The position numbers and the translations under genes are program-made. Below, piece by piece: positions 2,187 through 10,370 of a DNA stretch of 64,000 nucleotides. Each line of letters opens with the position of its first letter. Position 1 is the stretch's first letter. Source of the stretch: Roseibacillus sp. (GTDB lineage: Bacteria; Verrucomicrobiota; Verrucomicrobiia; Verrucomicrobiales; Akkermansiaceae); assembly GCA_051251855.1 (NCBI GenBank), contig JBPOGI010000007.1, forward strand, positions 96,001 through 160,000, written 5' to 3'. The notes under the pieces are model-generated. The model searched no databases. It saw only the letters and a program-made list of their open reading frames with translations, and was not told the origin of the DNA.

Positions 2187-2620
2187 GCACCTCAACCTCA
2201 GGGATCGAGATTGAGCTCGACCACTTTCACCACCAGCCCTTCCAAGAACTGAAAGGCAAAGTCCGTATCACGACACCAACCCCGCCCGAAGGTATGGAGC
2301 TCCGGGTCTTTTGGTTCACTCGAGGGCGTGGCGACGAAGAAGCCTCCATCATTCATCGTCTCAAACTCGAAACCGCCCAAGCGCTCACGAACTTCTCATG
2401 GAAACTTCCCGCTGCCCCCTACAGCTTCGCCGGCAAGCTCATCACCCTCGCTTGGGCTATCGAAGTTGTGGATGAAAACGAGCAATCCCTCGACCTTGTG
2501 CCCTTCCTCCTCTCCCCGAGTGGCGAAGAGGTTCAACTGGAAGCCATTCCTGACAACTCGCGCGCAGGAAAGCTCAAAGAAAAACTCGAGAAGAAATTCG
2601 GGCCACCGAGGAGCCAGTGA
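2183..2620 (+). CDS. Hypothetical protein, arrestin/SpoOM-like beta-sandwich
   Basis: ATG 2183 overlaps the upstream stop (ATGA). The motif LPAAPYSFAGKLITLAWAIE resembles the C-terminal domain of the upstream gene. Confidence 0.65.
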   Translation: MSTSTSGIEIELDHFHHQPFQELKGKVRITTPTPPEGMELRVFWFTRGRGDEEASIIHRLKLETAQALTNFSWKLPAAPYSFAGKLITLAWAIEVVDENEQSLDLVPFLLSPSGEEVQLEAIPDNSRAGKLKEKLEKKFGPPRSQ

Positions 2621-3261
2621 AAGCTCACCTCAACCCCTTCGCTCCCGACCGGGTGCAGCGGCTCCTTCCCTTTGACCCTGAACTCATCGAGACCACTTGG
2701 GAACAACTTGAAACTCGCTGGGAAAACCTTCATCGGCGAGCGGTCATTACCGGCCCTCACGGCAGCGGAAAGACCACCTTCCTCAACACCTTTGCCGAGC
2801 GCCTCGCTGACACCTATCACGTCGAAACCCTCTTCTTTCACCGTGACGAGCACCGCCTCTCTCCCCAGCAAAGGAAACAAATCACTCGGCTCAAAGCCCC
2901 CTCTCGCACCATTCTCCTCGTCGATGGTGAAGGCCACCTCACTTTGCGCGAACGCCATTGGTTGCGCCACCAAAGCCAAGAGATGGCAGGCTACCTTGTC
3001 GCGCGCCATCACCGCTGCACCCTCCCCACTCTGCTTTCTCTCAGCGTGACCCCAAAACTTGCCCATCAACTCCTCGAACAGATTCACCCGGCAGAAGCCA
3101 CTCGTCGCGCAAACGATCTCCCCCAACTTCTTCGAAAAAAGAGCGGGAACCTACGCGAACTCTGGCTTAGCTTTTATGACAACTATGCGAGCCAAGACTC
3201 TCCTCCCTCTTCTGTTCCTCCTAACCCTGACCTGCAGCGGAGCCAAGCTCGCTCCCGGTGA
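2617..3261 (+). CDS. P-loop ATPase (AAA-like) protein
   Basis: Walker A GPHGSGKTT, Walker B ILLVDG, C-terminal GNLREL; GTGA overlap with the upstream stop. Confidence 0.8.
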   Translation: MKAHLNPFAPDRVQRLLPFDPELIETTWEQLETRWENLHRRAVITGPHGSGKTTFLNTFAERLADTYHVETLFFHRDEHRLSPQQRKQITRLKAPSRTILLVDGEGHLTLRERHWLRHQSQEMAGYLVARHHRCTLPTLLSLSVTPKLAHQLLEQIHPAEATRRANDLPQLLRKKSGNLRELWLSFYDNYASQDSPPSSVPPNPDLQRSQARSR

Positions 3262-4480
3262 GCCCCTGCCCTCCCTCACTCTCCCCACCGCCAGAGAGCA
3301 CAAGCCTCTCAGCACCGACTCCTTTCTCGGAAAGAAGACCCTCGTTCACATCTTTGCTTCCTGGTGAGCAGGCTGCCGTAAGCACGTGCCCGGGTGGCAC
3401 AACCAAACGAAAGACCTCGTAACAGAAGGCAAATTGCAAGTATTCGGCATCGCACCCGAACAATACGGCGATCGTATGGCTCTCTTTCTTCAATGGAAGA
3501 ACCTCGAATTCCCCGTCCTGATGGATCCCTTAAATGTGCTCAATGTCTCTGCCGTCCCCATCACTCTTCTCGTCGATGAGTCCGGAGTGATTCGCTACCG
3601 CAATCCCAAGCCTAGAGATCTAAAAGTCTTTTTAGACAAAGAATACCCCGAAACCGCAAGAGTCATCACTCCCGCTTCTCCTCTCGGACAAGAGCAGGCG
3701 CTGCGGGCGCTTCAAAATCGAGACACAGCCGAAATCGAGAGAGCTGCTACCATGTTGGCCTTACTCTCGACTTCGAATAAAAATCCTGAATTCACTTTTC
3801 AATCCGGCGTTCTTGCTCGCTGGCTCTTTGACAACGGAGGCGATCCCGAGAATTTTCAAACTGCGGTCCACCTCTGGAGCGACGCCCTTGCTCATCGCCC
3901 CGGTCAATACATCTGGCGCCGAAGAATCCAGCAATACGGTCCTCGCCTTGATAAGCCCTACCCATTCTACAACTGGGTCATCGAAGCTCGCAAAGACCTG
4001 CAAGCCGCTGGAAAAACGCCTCACCCGCTCCAAGTCGAACCATCAGGCTCGGAAGTGGCAGCCCCGCGCAAGAAAGGCGAACAAGGAAAAGAGTCCCCCA
4101 ACTTCCCCGACCCTAACAACAAGCTCCCCCACGAAAACGCCCTCCTCGAAATCACAACCACTACCATCCCGCATACCGACGCCCCCGAGAAGGGACGCCT
4201 CCACCTCCTGCTCACTCCTACCGAGAACGGGCATTGGTCCAGCGATGCTCAAAAGGTCGAGCTCTGGTTTCGTCCCGAAGAAGGCTCCCCCATCTTTCTC
4301 ACCAGCGAGGCCACTTCCCTCCCGGCTAATCTCGAGACCAGCAGCCTCCCCCGAGTCCTCGAAGGAGATTTCTCTCTTCCACAAAACTCCGCTGGGAAGC
4401 TGGTTCTCTTCTACTCCCTTTGCGAAACCGAGAATGCTGTTTGCCGCTTTCTCAAAACGGAATGGAAATTTCATCAGTAA
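3185..4480 (+). CDS. Secreted TlpA/thioredoxin-fold redoxin, candidate selenoprotein (in-frame TGA at 3365-3367 giving WUAGC)
   Basis: ORFs 3059..3367 and 3386..4480 share a frame. Reading through gives LGKKTLVHIFASW-*-AGCRKHVPGW...FPVLMD...VSAVPITLLVDESGVIRY, a continuous TlpA fold with the TGA at the first Cys of CxxC. N-terminal signal peptide; start could be 3176. Confidence 0.8.
3365..3400 (+). promoter_or_regulatory. Candidate bacterial SECIS element
   Basis: TGA followed by the stem GTGCC (3386-3390) / loop CGGGT / GGCAC (3396-3400). 23 nt separate the TGA from the apical loop, which has G at loop position 2. Confidence 0.55.
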
Positions 4481-4989: not shown

Positions 4990-5595
4990 ATGAGCCTACA
5001 AGAAGAGTGGAACACACTATGCACCTCGTTGAATCTCGACGGCCTGCACTCTTGGACGAAGATCGAAGAATCCTACAGCAAGAACCAACTGGCTTATCAT
5101 AACCTCACTCATATCGCTGACTGTTTGAGCAAATTTCGAGCCTCACAACATCTTGCCCAAGACCCCGCTGCAATCGAACTCGCCATTTGGTTTCACGATA
5201 TCGTTTACGATCCCAAGGCCTCGGACAACGAGGAACAAAGTGCCCGCAGAGCTGAAAGCTTCCTATTGGATTCTCCTCTAACCACAAGGGTTACCGAACT
5301 CATTCTCGATACCAGCCACCGTCAGGAAGCAGAGACCTCCGACGGCAAGCTCATTTGTGATATCGACCTGAGTATTTTGGGGAGTGACCCAAAGAGCTAC
5401 CGTTCTTATGCAGATGCCATTCGAGAAGAATACTCTTGGGTAAATTCGACCGATTACATGCTCGGGCGCAGCCAAGTCTTAGAGAACTTTCTCAATCGAA
5501 AGAGAATCTTCGCTCTTCCCTACTTTGAAGAAAAATACGAACAGCAAGCACGATTGAACTTATCAGAAGAGTTAGAATCACTGACTAGTTGCTAG
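4990..5595 (+). CDS. Predicted HD-superfamily metal-dependent phosphohydrolase
   Basis: YHNLTHI, AIWFHDIVYDP, NEEQSA, DIDLSILG, IREEY motifs. Confidence 0.85.
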   Translation: MSLQEEWNTLCTSLNLDGLHSWTKIEESYSKNQLAYHNLTHIADCLSKFRASQHLAQDPAAIELAIWFHDIVYDPKASDNEEQSARRAESFLLDSPLTTRVTELILDTSHRQEAETSDGKLICDIDLSILGSDPKSYRSYADAIREEYSWVNSTDYMLGRSQVLENFLNRKRIFALPYFEEKYEQQARLNLSEELESLTSC

Positions 5596-8500
5596 AAACC
5601 TCAACCCCCAGCTCCTGAAAGGCGGTGTTTTCCTTGGGATTTTTGGCTGGAGAGACCTGCCAGACGATCCACCGGAACTCCCCAAGAGATTCTCCCTTCG
5701 GAGCTCGCAATGAAAGTGCACTAAACGCTTCCAAGGATTCTTTTCCGCTCTTCAAAACTCCCAAAGGCACGAACCGTTCCGCGTTGGTGAGGTCCCAGCC
5801 TGGGTCTTTCTCATCTGCACTCCCATAGAGACGAACTGACTGATGTCCACGTCGTCCCCCTTCGTTGTGAGACCAACTCGTCATCGCCGAAATACTCTTC
5901 TTCTTCCCGAGGTCTAGTTTGTAGGCACCATCTGTGATCCCATTCCCAAAGACTGGTCCGTATCCTTCCTCCAAGCGACCATCGGTAAGAACCTTCGGCG
6001 AGTCATTGCTTGTCTTCTGATTCGTCATCACTGTTCCCTTCGACTTCTTAGGGACCAACTGATTGAACTCAGAAGCATTCGCGGCGGTCTCAAAAAACAC
6101 GCCCTCACCTAGATTCTTCGTCGTCGCCTTCTTTTCTTCGACGGTCTTCAACTCTTCCACAATGAGCGAACCTTGCATCACCCGCCAGTGACCGGGGAAG
6201 GTGCAGATGTAGGGATAGACTCCCGGTTCAGTGGGAGCTTCGAAAACCAGCTCCTGCTCCTGCTTGGTGGAAAGAAGCTTCGACGCTTGCAGGATTTTTG
6301 CACTCTCAGGGAGATACTCTTTTTCAGCGCCATCCGCTTGGCCAGCTAGCTTGTCCGCCAACGCCCCCATCTCCTCAACGCTTCCGGGAGCAATAAGCAC
6401 CCAGTTGTGCGGCATGATATCGGGGTTTTCAAAAATGAGACGCACCTTACTCCCCGGGGTTACTCGAACTTCCTTGGGAGCAAACTGAAGCCCTGCCGCC
6501 GCCTGCACCCGAACCACGTTCCCTCGCTCAGCCACCATCTCTTCGTATTCCTCAGCAAAGCCCTCCAGCTCATCAAAGCTCTTTGAATACTGAACTCCAG
6601 CGACCTCCTGCCCAACCGGATCATAGAGATAGGCCGGTGGCATGGTCTTGGTTTTGCGACGTCCACTCTTGAGTAAAATCTCAATCGTATTCAGCCCCTT
6701 CTCCAGCTCGACATTGACTTGCTGGTCACCGCTCCAAAGCGAGTCCTGACTAAAAACGAGGCGATCGTTCAGACGAATATCAATCGACATGTGCTTAATC
6801 GCAATGATGGCTGTTGTGGGTTCATCAGCTTGAACAAAAGTTCGGAAGAGCCCCACCCCCGGCAGAGGCTTGCCTTCGGTCGCTAGCTCTGTGGGAACCG
6901 CATCCCCCTTCTCTCCCAGAAACAACCAATGCGTCATCCGTGAGTTCTTATCAACTTCGAGAACCGGAACGCTGCGCCCCTTGAGAGGTTCAATACCAAG
7001 GTCAAGATAACTGAGAGAACTTTCCACATCCTTTGTGAGCGGTTTCAGGTTGGCGAGAACCGTCTCCACCTCCGGATAATTGGGCCGCAAGTGAGCGACG
7101 GCATCAATGACTTCAATTTGAACTCTGGGATTCGTCTCGGTTTCAACAAAAGACAAAAGGCCCACCAAGTCGGGCAATTCATCTGCCTGAATTCGAATCG
7201 CTTGCACGGCCGCTCCTCGGTAAAGGGCCAACTTGGATCGAAGCAAAACCTTCAGGAGGTCTGGCTGAACTACCCCAAGGCCTTCCCCCACAAAAATGGT
7301 CTCGAGCACAGCCTGCTCATAGTTCTCATCCTCTTTATCAAAGGCCGCCAACCAATCATTAACCGCGCCCATCCCTTGCGAACCCTGCTTTCGCAACTCA
7401 ATTCGGGCATGCTTCCTCACTAGGTCCTGAGGGTGCACGAGAAGAGAACAAAGCGCTTTGAGCGAAGCTCCTTCAATCTGCGGCCAATCCTTGGCGAGTG
7501 ACCCTTTCGAATACACCACTCTCCAAATACGACCAAAATCATGGTCCCAATGAGGACTCCGCATTGGGTGCTGGGCGTGCCCAATAATGGGGCTACAAAA
7601 ATCGGAAATGTAGAGCGCCCCATCCATCCCAAACTCCAAGTCCGCTGGACGAAACGCCGCGTTGGGAGAAGAAACAATAGTCAAAGGATCCTTTTTCCGA
7701 TTGAACCCGTTTTTAGATTCGAAAGCAGTCAAGGTCACGGCATAGCGGCCAAGAAGAGCCGCCGAGGCCATCCCTTGCTGATAGCGCTCGGGGAAGTTCG
7801 GACTTGAGACAATGGTCAGTCCCGAGCCCTTTCCGTAGGTTGCAATGTTCGCGTAGCCAAAGGGATGATAACCACCCAGAGGAGTCCAAATCAGCGCGGT
7901 GCCATCATAGGCATGGCCATCGCCATAGTTCTGAAAGATTCCACCCCAACGATTAAAGGTCACCTTCCATGGATTGGGCGTGGTGTGCTGCCACTCGGTG
8001 ACAATTCCGCCATCCTTCATATCGAGCCGATAAGTGGTGGCATCGATTCCGCGATGAACCCCCATGGGCGTTTCTAACTGTGAACGATGAAAGACCCCGT
8101 CGCAGAAGATGACATCGCCAAAAGGGTCCGTCGTGATCATTCCGCCATGGTGAGAATCCGTCACGTCAATCCCGCGCAGCAATTCCACCTGAGTATCGGC
8201 TCGATCATCGCCGTCGGTATCCTTCATCAACCAAAGACGAGGCTGCTCCGAAACGATGACCCCGTCGCGATGAAAAGCCACCCCATCCAAAGCATCGAGA
8301 CCATCCATAAAGGTCGTGATCTTATCCGCTCGCCCATCTTTATCGGTATCTTCTAGAATTACGATTCGATCGGGTGGCGTGAGACCCGGCACAGTGTGAG
8401 GAAAAGAAGGCATCGTCACCACCCACAGGCGGCCACGCGCATCAAAAGAAATCTGAACCGGATTGCGCAGCTCAGGGAACTGCTCTTCCGAAGCAAAAAG

Positions 8501-9538
8501 GTTCACTTCAAAATCATCCGCGACAGTGAACTCCGCCATCGCCTCACTGGGTGGCTTAATGATTCCAGTGCGTGCGCCATCGTCTTTGCCCTTTCTCGGG
8601 GGGAGCGGAGGCAAGGAAGGCTTCTCGATATCAGCAAAATTCAGCGTCGAATCCTTGGCCATGCGATGCACCACTTCTTCGGTGAGACGAATCATCTCAT
8701 GATAGCGAGGCATCTCTTCATTATACTCCTTCGAGCGAGCACGGACTCCGAAGTAAACCACCGCATTCTTCGGTCTCACCACTTCAGCGACACGCTTGTG
8801 CTTCGCGGCCACGGCGAGTTTCAACTCCTCAATACGACTCTTATCCATCTCTTGAGTAGCGGAACCAACCAGCGCCTCGGCAATGACCCGAGCCACGTGA
8901 TGATTCCCCAAGTCACTCAAGTGAATGCCATTGTTCGTCAAGGGAGCTTCCAACTCTTGATATCTCTTTTGAGTCGCCGAAAAGAGATCCACGAACTCGG
9001 CCCCTCGTTCCTTGGCCAATTGCGCGATCGCTTGGCTATACATTCCAACCTCAGCTTGACGTTCAGCCGAAGCCCCCTCAATCGCAATCGGCGAAAGCAA
9101 AACAAACCGCGCATTGGGATGAAGATGAGAAAGCTGGTCGAGATGCACTCCATATTGCGCTCGAAAATCCTCCAAACCCTCCTCGCCCCCAAAAGACTCA
9201 TTCAAACCGTAGCCCAACACGATGGTGTCGGAAGGCCACTCTTGTAGCAAATTCTTCATGTGCTTGGCATAGCCCTCAAGACGAAGTCGATGGCCCACCT
9301 CATCACCGGTCCACGCCAAGCTACGGACCTTCAACCCAGCCTCGGGAGCAGCGAGCTGTAAACGCGCTTCCAATTCTCCATGCTCCAAGAGCCGCTCGAT
9401 CATGGAGTTGCCATAGAAGAGAATACTGTTCTTCCCCGAGGAATCAGCGGCCTTTGCAAGGACCGAGGTTAGGAGAAAAAGACAAGTCGCCAGGCAATAC
9501 GATCGAGCCGTGGAGGTGAGTCGAGAAAGGTTGTCCAT
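5585..9538 (-). CDS. Large secreted PVC-type redox protein: SGNH/GDSL-like domain, beta-propeller, HEAT repeats, azurin/auracyanin-type copper domain
   Basis: YGNSMIERL (SGNH-like); FEVNLFASE...NPVQISFDARGRLWV and LEDTDKDGRADK (PVC propeller); FRPADLEFGMDGALYISD; MPHNWV...YICTFPGHWRVM (type-1 Cu). Start uncertain (9538 or 9592). Confidence 0.85.
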   Translation of the reverse strand: MDNLSRLTSTARSYCLATCLFLLTSVLAKAADSSGKNSILFYGNSMIERLLEHGELEARLQLAAPEAGLKVRSLAWTGDEVGHRLRLEGYAKHMKNLLQEWPSDTIVLGYGLNESFGGEEGLEDFRAQYGVHLDQLSHLHPNARFVLLSPIAIEGASAERQAEVGMYSQAIAQLAKERGAEFVDLFSATQKRYQELEAPLTNNGIHLSDLGNHHVARVIAEALVGSATQEMDKSRIEELKLAVAAKHKRVAEVVRPKNAVVYFGVRARSKEYNEEMPRYHEMIRLTEEVVHRMAKDSTLNFADIEKPSLPPLPPRKGKDDGARTGIIKPPSEAMAEFTVADDFEVNLFASEEQFPELRNPVQISFDARGRLWVVTMPSFPHTVPGLTPPDRIVILEDTDKDGRADKITTFMDGLDALDGVAFHRDGVIVSEQPRLWLMKDTDGDDRADTQVELLRGIDVTDSHHGGMITTDPFGDVIFCDGVFHRSQLETPMGVHRGIDATTYRLDMKDGGIVTEWQHTTPNPWKVTFNRWGGIFQNYGDGHAYDGTALIWTPLGGYHPFGYANIATYGKGSGLTIVSSPNFPERYQQGMASAALLGRYAVTLTAFESKNGFNRKKDPLTIVSSPNAAFRPADLEFGMDGALYISDFCSPIIGHAQHPMRSPHWDHDFGRIWRVVYSKGSLAKDWPQIEGASLKALCSLLVHPQDLVRKHARIELRKQGSQGMGAVNDWLAAFDKEDENYEQAVLETIFVGEGLGVVQPDLLKVLLRSKLALYRGAAVQAIRIQADELPDLVGLLSFVETETNPRVQIEVIDAVAHLRPNYPEVETVLANLKPLTKDVESSLSYLDLGIEPLKGRSVPVLEVDKNSRMTHWLFLGEKGDAVPTELATEGKPLPGVGLFRTFVQADEPTTAIIAIKHMSIDIRLNDRLVFSQDSLWSGDQQVNVELEKGLNTIEILLKSGRRKTKTMPPAYLYDPVGQEVAGVQYSKSFDELEGFAEEYEEMVAERGNVVRVQAAAGLQFAPKEVRVTPGSKVRLIFENPDIMPHNWVLIAPGSVEEMGALADKLAGQADGAEKEYLPESAKILQASKLLSTKQEQELVFEAPTEPGVYPYICTFPGHWRVMQGSLIVEELKTVEEKKATTKNLGEGVFFETAANASEFNQLVPKKSKGTVMTNQKTSNDSPKVLTDGRLEEGYGPVFGNGITDGAYKLDLGKKKSISAMTSWSHNEGGRRGHQSVRLYGSADEKDPGWDLTNAERFVPLGVLKSGKESLEAFSALSLRAPKGESLGEFRWIVWQVSPAKNPKENTAFQELGVEVSSN

Positions 9539-9611
9539 GTTGAGTAGAGAGCTACGAAGAAACTCAGGCGAGTTTTCCACTTTATCCTCCATCAACAAGA
9601 AAAAGGAACCT

Positions 9612-10370
9612 CTACTGACCCAGCTTGGCCACATAGACCGTGCTTCGGCTCTCGCAATCTTGAATAGGATTGTCAAAGGTCACAATGTGCGCTTCCGCAG
9701 TAGCAAAAACTTCCCGCAAGGCCGTTAGAAATGCCTCATCTGGGGCATCATCAGACCACAGCCCAAAGACGCCTCCCGCCTTCAACTTGTTGGCCATCTT
9801 TCTCAGACCCTCTGGCTCATAAAACGTGGCATGGCGTTCATGCAAAAGCTTGGTAGGAGAATGGTCAATATCGAGGAGCACAGCATCAAACCGCTTTTCG
9901 GCCTCACCCGGTGCAAAGTGCTCGGCACCCTCATCAGCTAGCGCGAGTTCAAAGAAATCTCCATGCACAAAATGGCAACGCTCGTCATCGCTCAGCTCTT
10001 TTCCGAGAGGAACCAAACCACGCTGATGCCAATCAATCACCGGCGCGAGGTAGTCAACCACGTAACAAGATTTCACCGCAGAATACGCAAGAGCAGCCTG
10101 CGCGGTAAAACCCAGTCCCAAGCCACCGACCACCACATCTAGAGAAGGCTCACCTTCTAAAGTATCCGAAACCGCAGCCAAACCTAAGTCCGACAACGCC
10201 TCCTCCACCACTGTGAAGAGACTCGACATTAAAAAAGCATCGCCCAGAACAACCTCGTGCACCTCAAGGTGGTCGAGCGACGGAACGGTGCGTCGACGAA
10301 GGCTCAACAAACCCAACGGAGTCTGCTGGCTATCGAGGTGCTCGAAGACCGGTGGGCGAAACTCAGGCAA
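9612..10370 (-). CDS. Spermidine synthase-like SAM-dependent transferase
   Basis: FLMSSLFT, VVVGGLGLGFTA (SAM motif), FDAVLLDIDHSP, GGVFGLWS. Confidence 0.8.
   Translation of the reverse strand: MPEFRPPVFEHLDSQQTPLGLLSLRRRTVPSLDHLEVHEVVLGDAFLMSSLFTVVEEALSDLGLAAVSDTLEGEPSLDVVVGGLGLGFTAQAALAYSAVKSCYVVDYLAPVIDWHQRGLVPLGKELSDDERCHFVHGDFFELALADEGAEHFAPGEAEKRFDAVLLDIDHSPTKLLHERHATFYEPEGLRKMANKLKAGGVFGLWSDDAPDEAFLTALREVFATAEAHIVTFDNPIQDCESRSTVYVAKLGQ

Follow-up and report, generated by a model that had tools for sequence, protein, structure and literature searches.

A window of 64,000 nucleotides from Roseibacillus sp. (assembly GCA_051251855.1, contig JBPOGI010000007.1, positions 96,001 to 160,000 of the forward strand) was analysed, and all positions are counted from the first letter of this window. 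The genome containing it comprises 4.96 Mb in 13 contigs, with the window on contig 11. Positions 3185–4480 of the forward strand very probably form one gene for an exported selenoprotein of 431 residues, a redox protein with three domains, as judged by comparison with relatives and by structure prediction. The UGA at 3365–3367 is almost certainly decoded as selenocysteine (Sec, U) at the active site and would not act as a stop.

The list of open reading frames (ORFs) made with translation table 11 contains 3059–3367 and 3386–4480, both on the forward strand and in the same frame as the ATG at 3185. The first ORF ends on the TGA at 3365–3367, and this single codon divides it from the second, exactly as an earlier preliminary description of the stretch had read the two. 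Translation of 3185–4480 with TGA read as U yields 431 residues before the stop codon TAA. Its sole non-standard step is U61 in the context HIFASW-U-AGC-RKHVP, and the 431 codons contain no other stop or frameshift. This translation, the orthologues and a structural model from AlphaFold2 (AF2) all describe a complete selenoprotein gene with Sec at codon 61. The model of the read-through protein was built from an alignment of 28 sequences and reached a predicted local distance difference test (pLDDT) score of 89.6 and a predicted template modelling (pTM) score of 0.86. It has three parts, namely a thioredoxin fold at about residues 24–150, helices at 167–275 and a beta-sandwich at 315–430. The preliminary description had proposed an exported selenoprotein of 431 residues with Sec61. 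The length and the residue were borne out, and export is judged from an inspection of the N-terminus only. The tetratricopeptide repeat (TPR)-like part and the DsbD-alpha-like domain, which make up two thirds of the protein, were absent from that description.

Thioredoxin-fold domain and the in-frame UGA

The N-terminal domain covers residues 24–150 (3254–3634, forward strand). Over residues 24–144, Pfam assigned AhpC-TSA (PF00578) at 39.7 bits against a cut-off of 26 and Redoxin (PF08534) at 36.6 bits against 26.6. The top Foldseek matches of the domain were DsbE/CcmG, ResA and TlpA-like chains (E about 3e-8, TMt 0.74–0.79). A phmmer search of the PDB sequences retrieved CcmG (3kh7) at 1.8e-7, as well as StoA and ResA. 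In the AF2 model, residues 21–150 have pLDDT values of 93–98, with a strand at 52–56 and a helix starting from residue 62. The preliminary description had placed the TGA at the attacking cysteine of the thioredoxin motif, and the solved structures agree with this: U61 and C64 fall on both cysteines of W-C-x-x-C in 3kh7 (CcmG), 3or5, 3erw (StoA) and 2h1b (ResA). The codon at 3365–3367 (+) thus corresponds to the attacking residue of a U-A-G-C redox motif, by column conservation and by this alignment. Cys64 (3374–3376, +) corresponds to the second cysteine of WCxxC, the resolving residue of the U-x-x-C motif, and is invariant in alignment A4 of the family. Homology and fold together show a thioredoxin fold of the periplasmic TlpA/ResA/CcmG type, with Sec61 in place of the attacking cysteine and Cys64 as the resolving one.

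In TlpA, ResA, CcmG (DsbE), StoA and Etrx the catalytic domain agrees with the present one in fold and in length, and the W-C-x-x-C motif is located at the same place. By inspection, the N-terminus resembles the export signal of that family, and a membrane reductant of the DsbD type is encoded in this genome. In contrast to that family, the attacking cysteine is Sec in the present protein. Furthermore, the solved members lack the roughly 280 additional residues found here, which hold the TPR-like part, the invariant WRRRIQQYGPRLDKPYPFY block and the DsbD-alpha-like domain. No cytochrome c maturation or copper-centre genes are linked to the neighbourhood of the present gene, unlike in the TlpA/ResA/CcmG systems.

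The codon at the Sec column was scored in relatives. Seven of seven full-length orthologues from genomes of other species (38–60% identity) have exactly one TGA, located in the same column within FASW*AGCR. An eighth species locus (G009) is cut at residue 100 by a contig end, and with it the TGA column is conserved in 8/8. A scan of one genome per species gave at least 599 pattern matches, among which at least 540 were confirmed as relatives. All locus-level counts of codons, hairpins and N-termini given below cover the best 80 of these at least 540 relatives (35–60% identity), including the seven full-length species orthologues; where 81 sequences are mentioned, the window has been added to the 80 loci. 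TGA is present at the Sec column in 80/80 loci, comprising 79/79 found by the pattern and L093, which the pattern missed. A cysteine codon at this column was found in none of the 80 loci. The preliminary description had expected a mixture of TGA and TGC/TGT among homologues as support for Sec, and the observed conservation is stronger than that. The loci belong to Verrucomicrobiota (Roseibacillus, Akkermansiaceae, Oceaniferula and Limisphaerales), Acidobacteriota (Vicinamibacteria, Marinacidobacterales and Thermoanaerobaculia), Planctomycetota, Poribacteria and Anaerolineae, which amount to at least five phyla.

The distribution of the family is patchy. With the profile of alignment A1 at E ≤ 1e-30, no match was obtained in 300 other genomes of the phylum; this sample includes 22 genomes from a single further genus of its bacterial family, the genus of the window being absent from it, and it shows patchiness only. 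In a tree of 27 members the phyla are intermixed with good support, as in the grouping of Poribacteria with Marinacidobacterales (97/95) and that of Limisphaerales with Phycisphaerales (82/81). Therefore, the family has moved between phyla. The protein segment encoded 5' of the TGA is also conserved in different phyla. A hydrophobic N-terminus lies 53–80 residues ahead of U in 76 of the 80 loci and in 8/8 species loci, by inspection. In the window, the corresponding signal-peptide-like segment MRAKTLLPLLFLLTLTCSGA spans about residues 1–20 (3185–3244, +), again by inspection only, and residues 1–17 have pLDDT below 50 in the AF2 model. The protein is regarded as exported from the inspection of this hydrophobic N-terminus only.

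Two readings in which the UGA is not translated were considered. In the first, the TGA is peculiar to this genome and arose from a nonsense mutation, from the decay of the gene into a pseudogene or from an error in sequencing. The preliminary description had named a private TGA in a genome devoid of Sec machinery as the finding that would speak against its proposal. The private TGA is ruled out by its presence in all 80 loci and by the contigs of public runs, which are unchanged at 3365–3367, and the Sec machinery is complete. The contigs of the possible source run carry the stretch unchanged, and six short contigs from a second study, covering 3345–3402 only, have no other letter at the codon. 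The runs X5, X6 and X8 leave the larger part of the gene uncovered. TGC or TGT, an outcome which the preliminary description had also considered, thus appears in none of these contigs. Nothing was found in favour of a defect, and the 431 codons free of further stops and frameshifts argue against it. The probability of this reading is practically negligible.

In the second, the TGA is a true stop, and the locus encodes a secreted peptide of about 60 residues together with a separate protein of 364 residues starting from the GTG at 3386. Table 11 yields exactly these two ORFs, the database entries all start at or near this GTG, and the GTG is conserved in 79/81 sequences. However, such a division would break a thioredoxin fold within the active-site motif, where U61 and C64 correspond to WCxxC, while the read-through protein folds as one confident thioredoxin domain. 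Conservation of the upstream segment at the protein level extends across phyla, and the 364-residue product would have no signal peptide, though those relatives whose function is known are periplasmic. The gene is also confined to genomes with selA, being present in 9/21 of these and in 0/20 of those without selA. The conservation of the GTG is accounted for by a base pair of the hairpin described below. A true stop is therefore extremely unlikely, and the 364-residue ORF at 3386–4480 (+), whose GTG is a valine codon within the stem of that hairpin, is an artefact of annotation in the ORF list.

Forms of the protein with cysteine in place of Sec were searched for in protein databases. A word-indexed search of 5.8 billion proteins gave as its best 120 matches proteins of 263–407 residues, nearly all covering 77–84% of the query. 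They therefore start after the TGA. The database contains a protein identical to the 364-residue product (P0002) and about 120 relatives of 333–407 residues, to which about 83% of the query aligns. When residues 1–150 were used as query, 38 of the 39 matches began past U. The remaining one, P0004 (407 residues, 69% identity, from an ENA metagenome contig), was rejected as a cysteine form because it is frame-shifted across the Sec and hairpin region; its frame shifts out and back, through a fault of assembly or through decay of the copy. When 1.84 billion representatives were searched exhaustively by HMMER with a full-length read-through profile, 433 proteins were retrieved at E ≤ 1e-30. Among the best 150 of these, 144 begin no earlier than profile position 67, past the Sec column. 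The other six span the column and read S-x-x-C (P0238, P0239, P0243 and P0272), C-x-x-S (P0232) or S-x-x-S (P0264); no CxxC form was found among these six. All six have lost one or both cysteines of a distal pair located near the C-terminus, and the most conserved block of the family is degenerate in them. The tree can accommodate them in a single clade (1 change, support 62/93). Since they carry serine or CxxS at the active site and have lost the distal pair, they are probably redox-dead paralogues. Sec and cysteine are paired at the level of the superfamily, through CcmG, StoA and ResA, while no CxxC form was found within the orthologous family. From these comparisons Sec appears to be obligatory within the orthologous family.

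As a separate observation, another genome (G034) has at C2:186463-186852 (L044) a distant TlpA-like match with one in-frame TGA, aligned to residues 45–172 at E 6.3e-4. It may represent another family of thioredoxin-fold selenoproteins.

The bSECIS hairpin and the selenocysteine machinery

Directly downstream of the UGA lies the core of a bacterial selenocysteine insertion sequence (bSECIS) at 3386–3400 (+). The preliminary description had proposed a hairpin of GTGCC, CGGGT and GGCAC with its loop 23 nt downstream, and this was confirmed: GTGCC occupies 3386–3390, CGGGT 3391–3395 and GGCAC 3396–3400, and the loop begins at a distance of 23 nt from the A of the TGA. The core thus has a 5 bp stem, GUGCC/GGCAC, and a 5-nt loop, CGGGU, and it was delineated with pair tables, covariation and RNAalifold. 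With the U of UGA numbered as position 0, pairs 22–34 and 25–31 are formed in 81/81 sequences and pairs 21–35 and 24–32 in 80/81. Pair 23–33 is formed in 81/81 with GC in 74, GU in 5 and AU in 2. A sixth pair, 20–36, is formed in 64/81 (CG 50, UA 8, UG 5, GU 1). Paired cells amount to 96.0%, against 17.7–61.3% in controls with slid partners. The covariation score is 0.157 against 0.126 in shuffles, and 0 of 500 shuffles reached it. RNAalifold predicted the same helix of six pairs. The stem falls within the codons for the conserved V-P-G-W-H, and the positions that are informative, being synonymous or variable, are only 20, 23, 26, 35 and 36. The valine codon of the stem is GTG in 79/81 sequences, against 38% of the valine codons elsewhere in the same genes, and the four-fold sites neighbouring the hairpin vary freely. 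The conservation of GTG can be explained by the hairpin pair 23–33.

The published bSECIS model (PMC13188914, section 5 and legend of Fig. 2) describes a loop of 3–9 nt, a stem of 4–16 bp, a G within the first two positions of the loop, a distance of 16–37 nt from the UGA and a minimum free energy (MFE) of –7.5 kcal/mol or lower. The present hairpin agrees with all of these as given there, with its 5-nt loop, 5–6 bp stem, 23-nt spacing, loop G and MFE, as judged against the published constraints. Position 2 of the loop is G and position 3 is G or U in 81/81 sequences. The hairpin of the window alone has an MFE of –7.6 kcal/mol, and the UGA with the following 50 nt has an MFE of –7.5 kcal/mol or lower in 81/81. 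In comparison with the consensus bSECIS (the bSECISearch model of Zhang and Gladyshev, as presented in PMC13188914), the element likewise lies within the coding sequence directly 3' of the UGA and keeps to the constraints, while its stem of 5–6 bp is at the short end of the permitted length. A scan of 3200–3600 against RFAM at E ≤ 10 gave chance lncRNA and sRNA matches far below the gathering scores and no bacterial SECIS family.

Several observations weigh against Sec decoding. No RNA run containing the stretch was found. The sixth pair is C·A in the window (3385/3401) and is missing in 17/81 sequences. The conservation of the stem is largely forced by the protein, that is, by V-P-G-W-H. The MFE of the hairpin alone reaches –7.5 kcal/mol in just 59/81 sequences. 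In addition, the single-sequence fold of 3365–3425 has –14.9 kcal/mol with a z value of –0.15, which was equalled by 76 of 200 shuffles; for this hairpin, single-sequence folding against shuffles is a powerless test.

The genome was examined for the genes of Sec incorporation which the preliminary description had suggested to look for, and all four were found above their cut-offs. The tRNA-Sec scored 63.9 bits against a cut-off of 47 and was identified by ARAGORN as SeC with the anticodon tca (UCA). The scores of selA (455.6 bits), selB (331.1 bits) and selD (375.9 bits) are above the curated cut-offs. The selD gene (G000:C7:93121-94050, locus L018) has one in-frame TGA and encodes a selenoprotein itself, with the motif SSCAG-U-ASKL. 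A hairpin also follows this UGA, with an apical loop AGGUC that begins 32 nt past the UGA, and the bSECIS hairpin of the studied gene resembles it. Among 41 related genomes selA is present in 21, and the studied gene occurs in 9 of these 21 and in 0 of the 20 selA-negative genomes; these genomes are not independent, and the co-occurrence is given as consistency rather than as a statistic.

A different route of readthrough was also weighed, in which the UGA is passed without SelB and tRNA-Sec, for example by near-cognate insertion of Trp or Cys or through a recoding signal other than SECIS. The assignment of Sec was made by sequence comparison, and the hairpin is short (5–6 bp) and no more stable alone than shuffles of the region; both points leave room for such a route. 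Against it stand the complete Sec machinery and the confinement of the gene to selA-positive genomes among the 41 relatives. The position of the UGA also corresponds to the catalytic cysteine of a CxxC motif, which is a classic site of Sec according to Table 1 of PMC13188914. Besides, the hairpin fits the bSECIS model including the loop G and is similar to that of selD. Readthrough of this kind is very unlikely. The comparison among relatives shows the hairpin at 3386–3400 as the element that would direct decoding of the UGA at 3365–3367 by SelB and tRNA-Sec.

Helical part, C-terminal domain and the distal cysteine pair

The thioredoxin fold is followed by a TPR-like helical region at residues 167–239 (3683–3901, +), recognised from the AF2 helices (residues 167–237), the family profile and Pfam matches of relatives. 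Positions 185–247 of the family profile match consensus TPR units among the PDB sequences (E about 0.013 per unit), and the relatives P0117 and P0120 match Pfam TPR_14, TPR_11 or TPR_2 around the cut-off. No Pfam family was matched by residues 151–431 of the window protein. Conservation within the family is highest in the block GQYIWRRRIQQYGPRLDKPYPFYNW at residues 240–264 (3902–3976, +). Its columns Y242, I243, R245–R247, Q249, Q250, G252, P253, K257–Y259, F261, Y262 and W264 are invariant in both A1 and A4. The family consensus of the block, QYIWRRRIQQYGPRLDKPYPFY(D/N)W, is rich in arginine and aromatic residues and closes the helical part.

Residues 315–431 (4127–4477, +) are predicted to form a DsbD-alpha-like beta-sandwich of the immunoglobulin (Ig) fold, according to AF2 and hhalign. 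This domain folded alone has a pLDDT of 89.0 and 8 strands. It contains the distal C-x6-C pair, Cys413 (4421–4423, +) and Cys420 (4442–4444, +). Both cysteines are invariant in 48/48 sequences of alignment A3, 28/28 of A1 and 21/21 of A4, in a domain which is otherwise only 20–55% identical. For comparison, 31 bona fide DsbD_N domains were collected from this genome and its relatives. When the C-terminal alignment of the family was compared with them by hhalign, a probability of 89.0 and an E value of 2.4e-6 were obtained over 121 columns, and C413 and C420 landed on the first and the second cysteine of the DsbD_N pair, respectively. The controls, comprising the reversed and ten column-shuffled templates, gave probabilities of at most 1.9 and E values of at least 0.025. 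The independent full-length alignment A4 gave a probability of 78 and an E value of 1.8e-5, with the C-terminal domain only. Since hhalign places both cysteines on the DsbD_N pair and the Pfam scores remain below threshold, the domain is a remote homologue of DsbD-alpha, below membership at the Pfam level.

DsbD consists of an alpha domain of the Ig fold with Cys103 and Cys109, a membrane beta domain and a gamma domain of the thioredoxin fold, and it transfers electrons to CcmG. Both kinds of periplasmic module used by DsbD are represented in the present protein: its thioredoxin fold contains a centre of the dithiol type, and its DsbD-alpha-like sandwich contains a cysteine pair aligned to the catalytic one. 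Unlike DsbD, the protein has no membrane domain, and the order is reversed, with the thioredoxin fold first, the sandwich last and the TPR-like part between them. Further differences are the C-x6-C spacing, the Sec in the thioredoxin centre and a sandwich under the Pfam DsbD_N threshold. The genome encodes a normal DsbD as well, with DsbD_N and DsbD_TM in one frame of 718 codons, together with a stand-alone DsbD_N protein. The latter (G000:C13:33418-33747, L128) and its relatives (L131, L134, L136–L139 and others) are frames of 260–401 residues without the DsbD membrane domain, which were observed here and widely among 31 relatives whose genomes were searched.

In the mechanism that we propose, the exported protein would have a TlpA-type selenol/thiol redox centre at U61/C64, and this centre and the C413–C420 pair would exchange electrons intramolecularly in a selenol/thiol-disulfide relay. 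Such a relay would resemble the transfer from DsbD gamma to alpha or from DsbD-alpha to CcmG, fused in one soluble polypeptide. The ultimate reductant would be the membrane DsbD encoded in this genome, and the final target would be an envelope protein or an oxidised thiol. On the present analysis, the chance that the two redox centres form this relay is about even. The broader proposal, that the family is a self-contained Se-dependent redox relay of the envelope where Cys cannot stand in for Sec, is tentative and rather doubtful.

The chief alternative is a genuine selenoprotein without an internal relay. The thioredoxin domain would then be a reductase of the TlpA/CcmG type reduced directly by the membrane DsbD, C413–C420 would be a structural disulfide stapling a beta-hairpin, and the TPR-like part and the sandwich would bind a substrate or a partner. 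Secreted Ig-like domains often have structural disulfides. This alternative is also favoured by the complete DsbD of the genome, which has an alpha domain of its own. Further points weigh against the relay, and several of them concern how remote the link to DsbD-alpha is. In the VIA fold search, DsbD-alpha was matched by 1jpe_A at Z 7.4 (root-mean-square deviation 3.5, 101 aligned) and by 2k0r at Z 7.0, and both are tied with generic Ig-like sandwiches at Z 6.3–8.0, including superoxide reductase (Z 8.0), FN3, GAE and ApaG domains. Foldseek against the PDB likewise returned superoxide reductase (6.2e-4) and generic Ig-like chains for the C-terminal domain. The domain of the window is unmatched by Pfam DsbD_N (PF11412, gathering score 25 bits), and 3 of 48 members gave matches to it below the threshold, with a best E of 0.057. 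Neither DsbD nor anything else relevant was retrieved when PDB sequences were searched with the profile. Moreover, the locus L072, from a metagenome-assembled genome of Limisphaerales, keeps the TGA and has lost the first distal cysteine (YFYLRYSDTGVCQF), as an exception to the conservation of both redox centres together. Because one clade suffices for the six non-Sec forms, the joint loss of Sec and distal cysteine amounts to one or two events only, perhaps a single one. A conserved gene neighbour that would indicate a substrate was also lacking: when 404 flanking ORFs were clustered, the largest cluster covered 7 of 81 loci.

On the other hand, the complete invariance of both cysteines within so divergent a domain speaks against a purely structural role. 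C413 and C420 occupy the very columns of the DsbD_N catalytic pair, and one or both of them are gone in all six non-Sec forms. A protein without the internal relay is accordingly given a little less than an even chance.

Known families, gene neighbourhood and significance

Selenoproteins of the thioredoxin fold with UxxC, of the TlpA, peroxiredoxin (Prx)-like and thiol-disulfide-isomerase types, have been catalogued since 2004–2008, as listed in Table 1 of PMC13188914. The tables for the Sargasso Sea (PMC1088965) contain 4 'thiol-disulfide isomerase-like' sequences, and the Global Ocean Sampling (GOS) table (PMC2398784) contains 68 sequences of 'Prx-like 3, pfam08534, UxxC'. The preliminary description had called such proteins an established bacterial kind, which these catalogues bear out. 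The catalogued families resemble the present one in having Sec as the first residue of CxxC, a TlpA- or Prx-like fold and an occurrence in marine metagenomes. In contrast to the present family, for which no cysteine form was found, their cysteine homologues are described in the same sources as 'widespread' or as numbering thousands. The catalogue tables give the motif and the domain identifier only, and mention no TPR part, DsbD-alpha-like domain or lack of cysteine forms. An existing label in them ('Thiol-disulfide isomerase-like', 'Redoxin family' or 'Prx-like 3') may cover the N-terminal domain of this family, as compared by description only. No description of the three-domain architecture was found in the parts consulted of PMC13188914, PMC1088965, PMC2398784, PMC5029168 and PMC13326102, the supplements lying outside this scope.

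The family is covered by none of the NCBIfam models, of which NF041054 (WAxxUGC_long) came closest, aligning residues 27–144 to profile positions 83–201 with 46.4 bits. NF041054, curated as 'ResA-like WAxxUGC motif-containing protein', is likewise a ResA-like exported thioredoxin-fold selenoprotein with extra length. However, its Sec is at the second position of the motif according to its name, W-A-x-x-U-G-C, and the motif here is W-U-A-G-C. Membership was rejected, since the score is far below the cut-off of 300 bits, the match is restricted to the thioredoxin domain and the motif differs. A UxxC selenoprotein of the TlpA type is a known kind, while the architecture and the apparently obligate Sec are new. 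The size and spread of the mis-annotated family and the apparent lack of a CxxC form add to this novelty, without establishing a new category.

In the neighbourhood, an ORF at 2617–3261 (+) of 214 residues with the P-loop motif GPHGSGKT overlaps the start of the selenoprotein gene by 77 nt, and this overlap suggests translational coupling. The neighbour cluster to which this ORF belongs is present in the window and in 2 other loci only. Downstream, an ORF of 1363 residues lies on the opposite strand at 5585–9676 (–). In 7 of the 81 loci (L048–L127, e.g. L068:1971-2606 (–)), a divergent ORF of about 210 residues is located roughly 370 nt upstream. By eye it may be a DUF3179 protein, a family which the 2026 review counts among those of selenoproteins.

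The family is of practical consequence for annotation. In public databases, hundreds of its entries are truncated at the UGA, as seen from the at least 540 relatives in one genome collection and from 144 of the best 150 cluster representatives. Names of the cut records in RefSeq and GenBank are 'TlpA family protein disulfide reductase', 'thioredoxin family protein' or 'hypothetical protein', and 'TPR repeat' also occurs as a label; these records lack both the signal peptide and the catalytic residue. The carriers are marine and soil Verrucomicrobiota, Acidobacteriota and Planctomycetota, including the cultured Roseibacillus persicicus KCTC 12988 and Oceaniferula spumae NT6N. The conservation of the TGA in every one of the 80 loci, with no CxxC form, would make the family a useful case for understanding what Sec achieves and Cys does not. 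If this holds true, it would join the few bacterial selenoprotein families whose Sec has no replacement by Cys. The family extends over at least five phyla, and its only non-Sec relatives would have given up redox chemistry, with serine at the active site and loss of the distal cysteines. The combination of a TlpA-type centre and a DsbD-alpha-type centre in one soluble protein suggests a reducing pathway that has not been described in model organisms.

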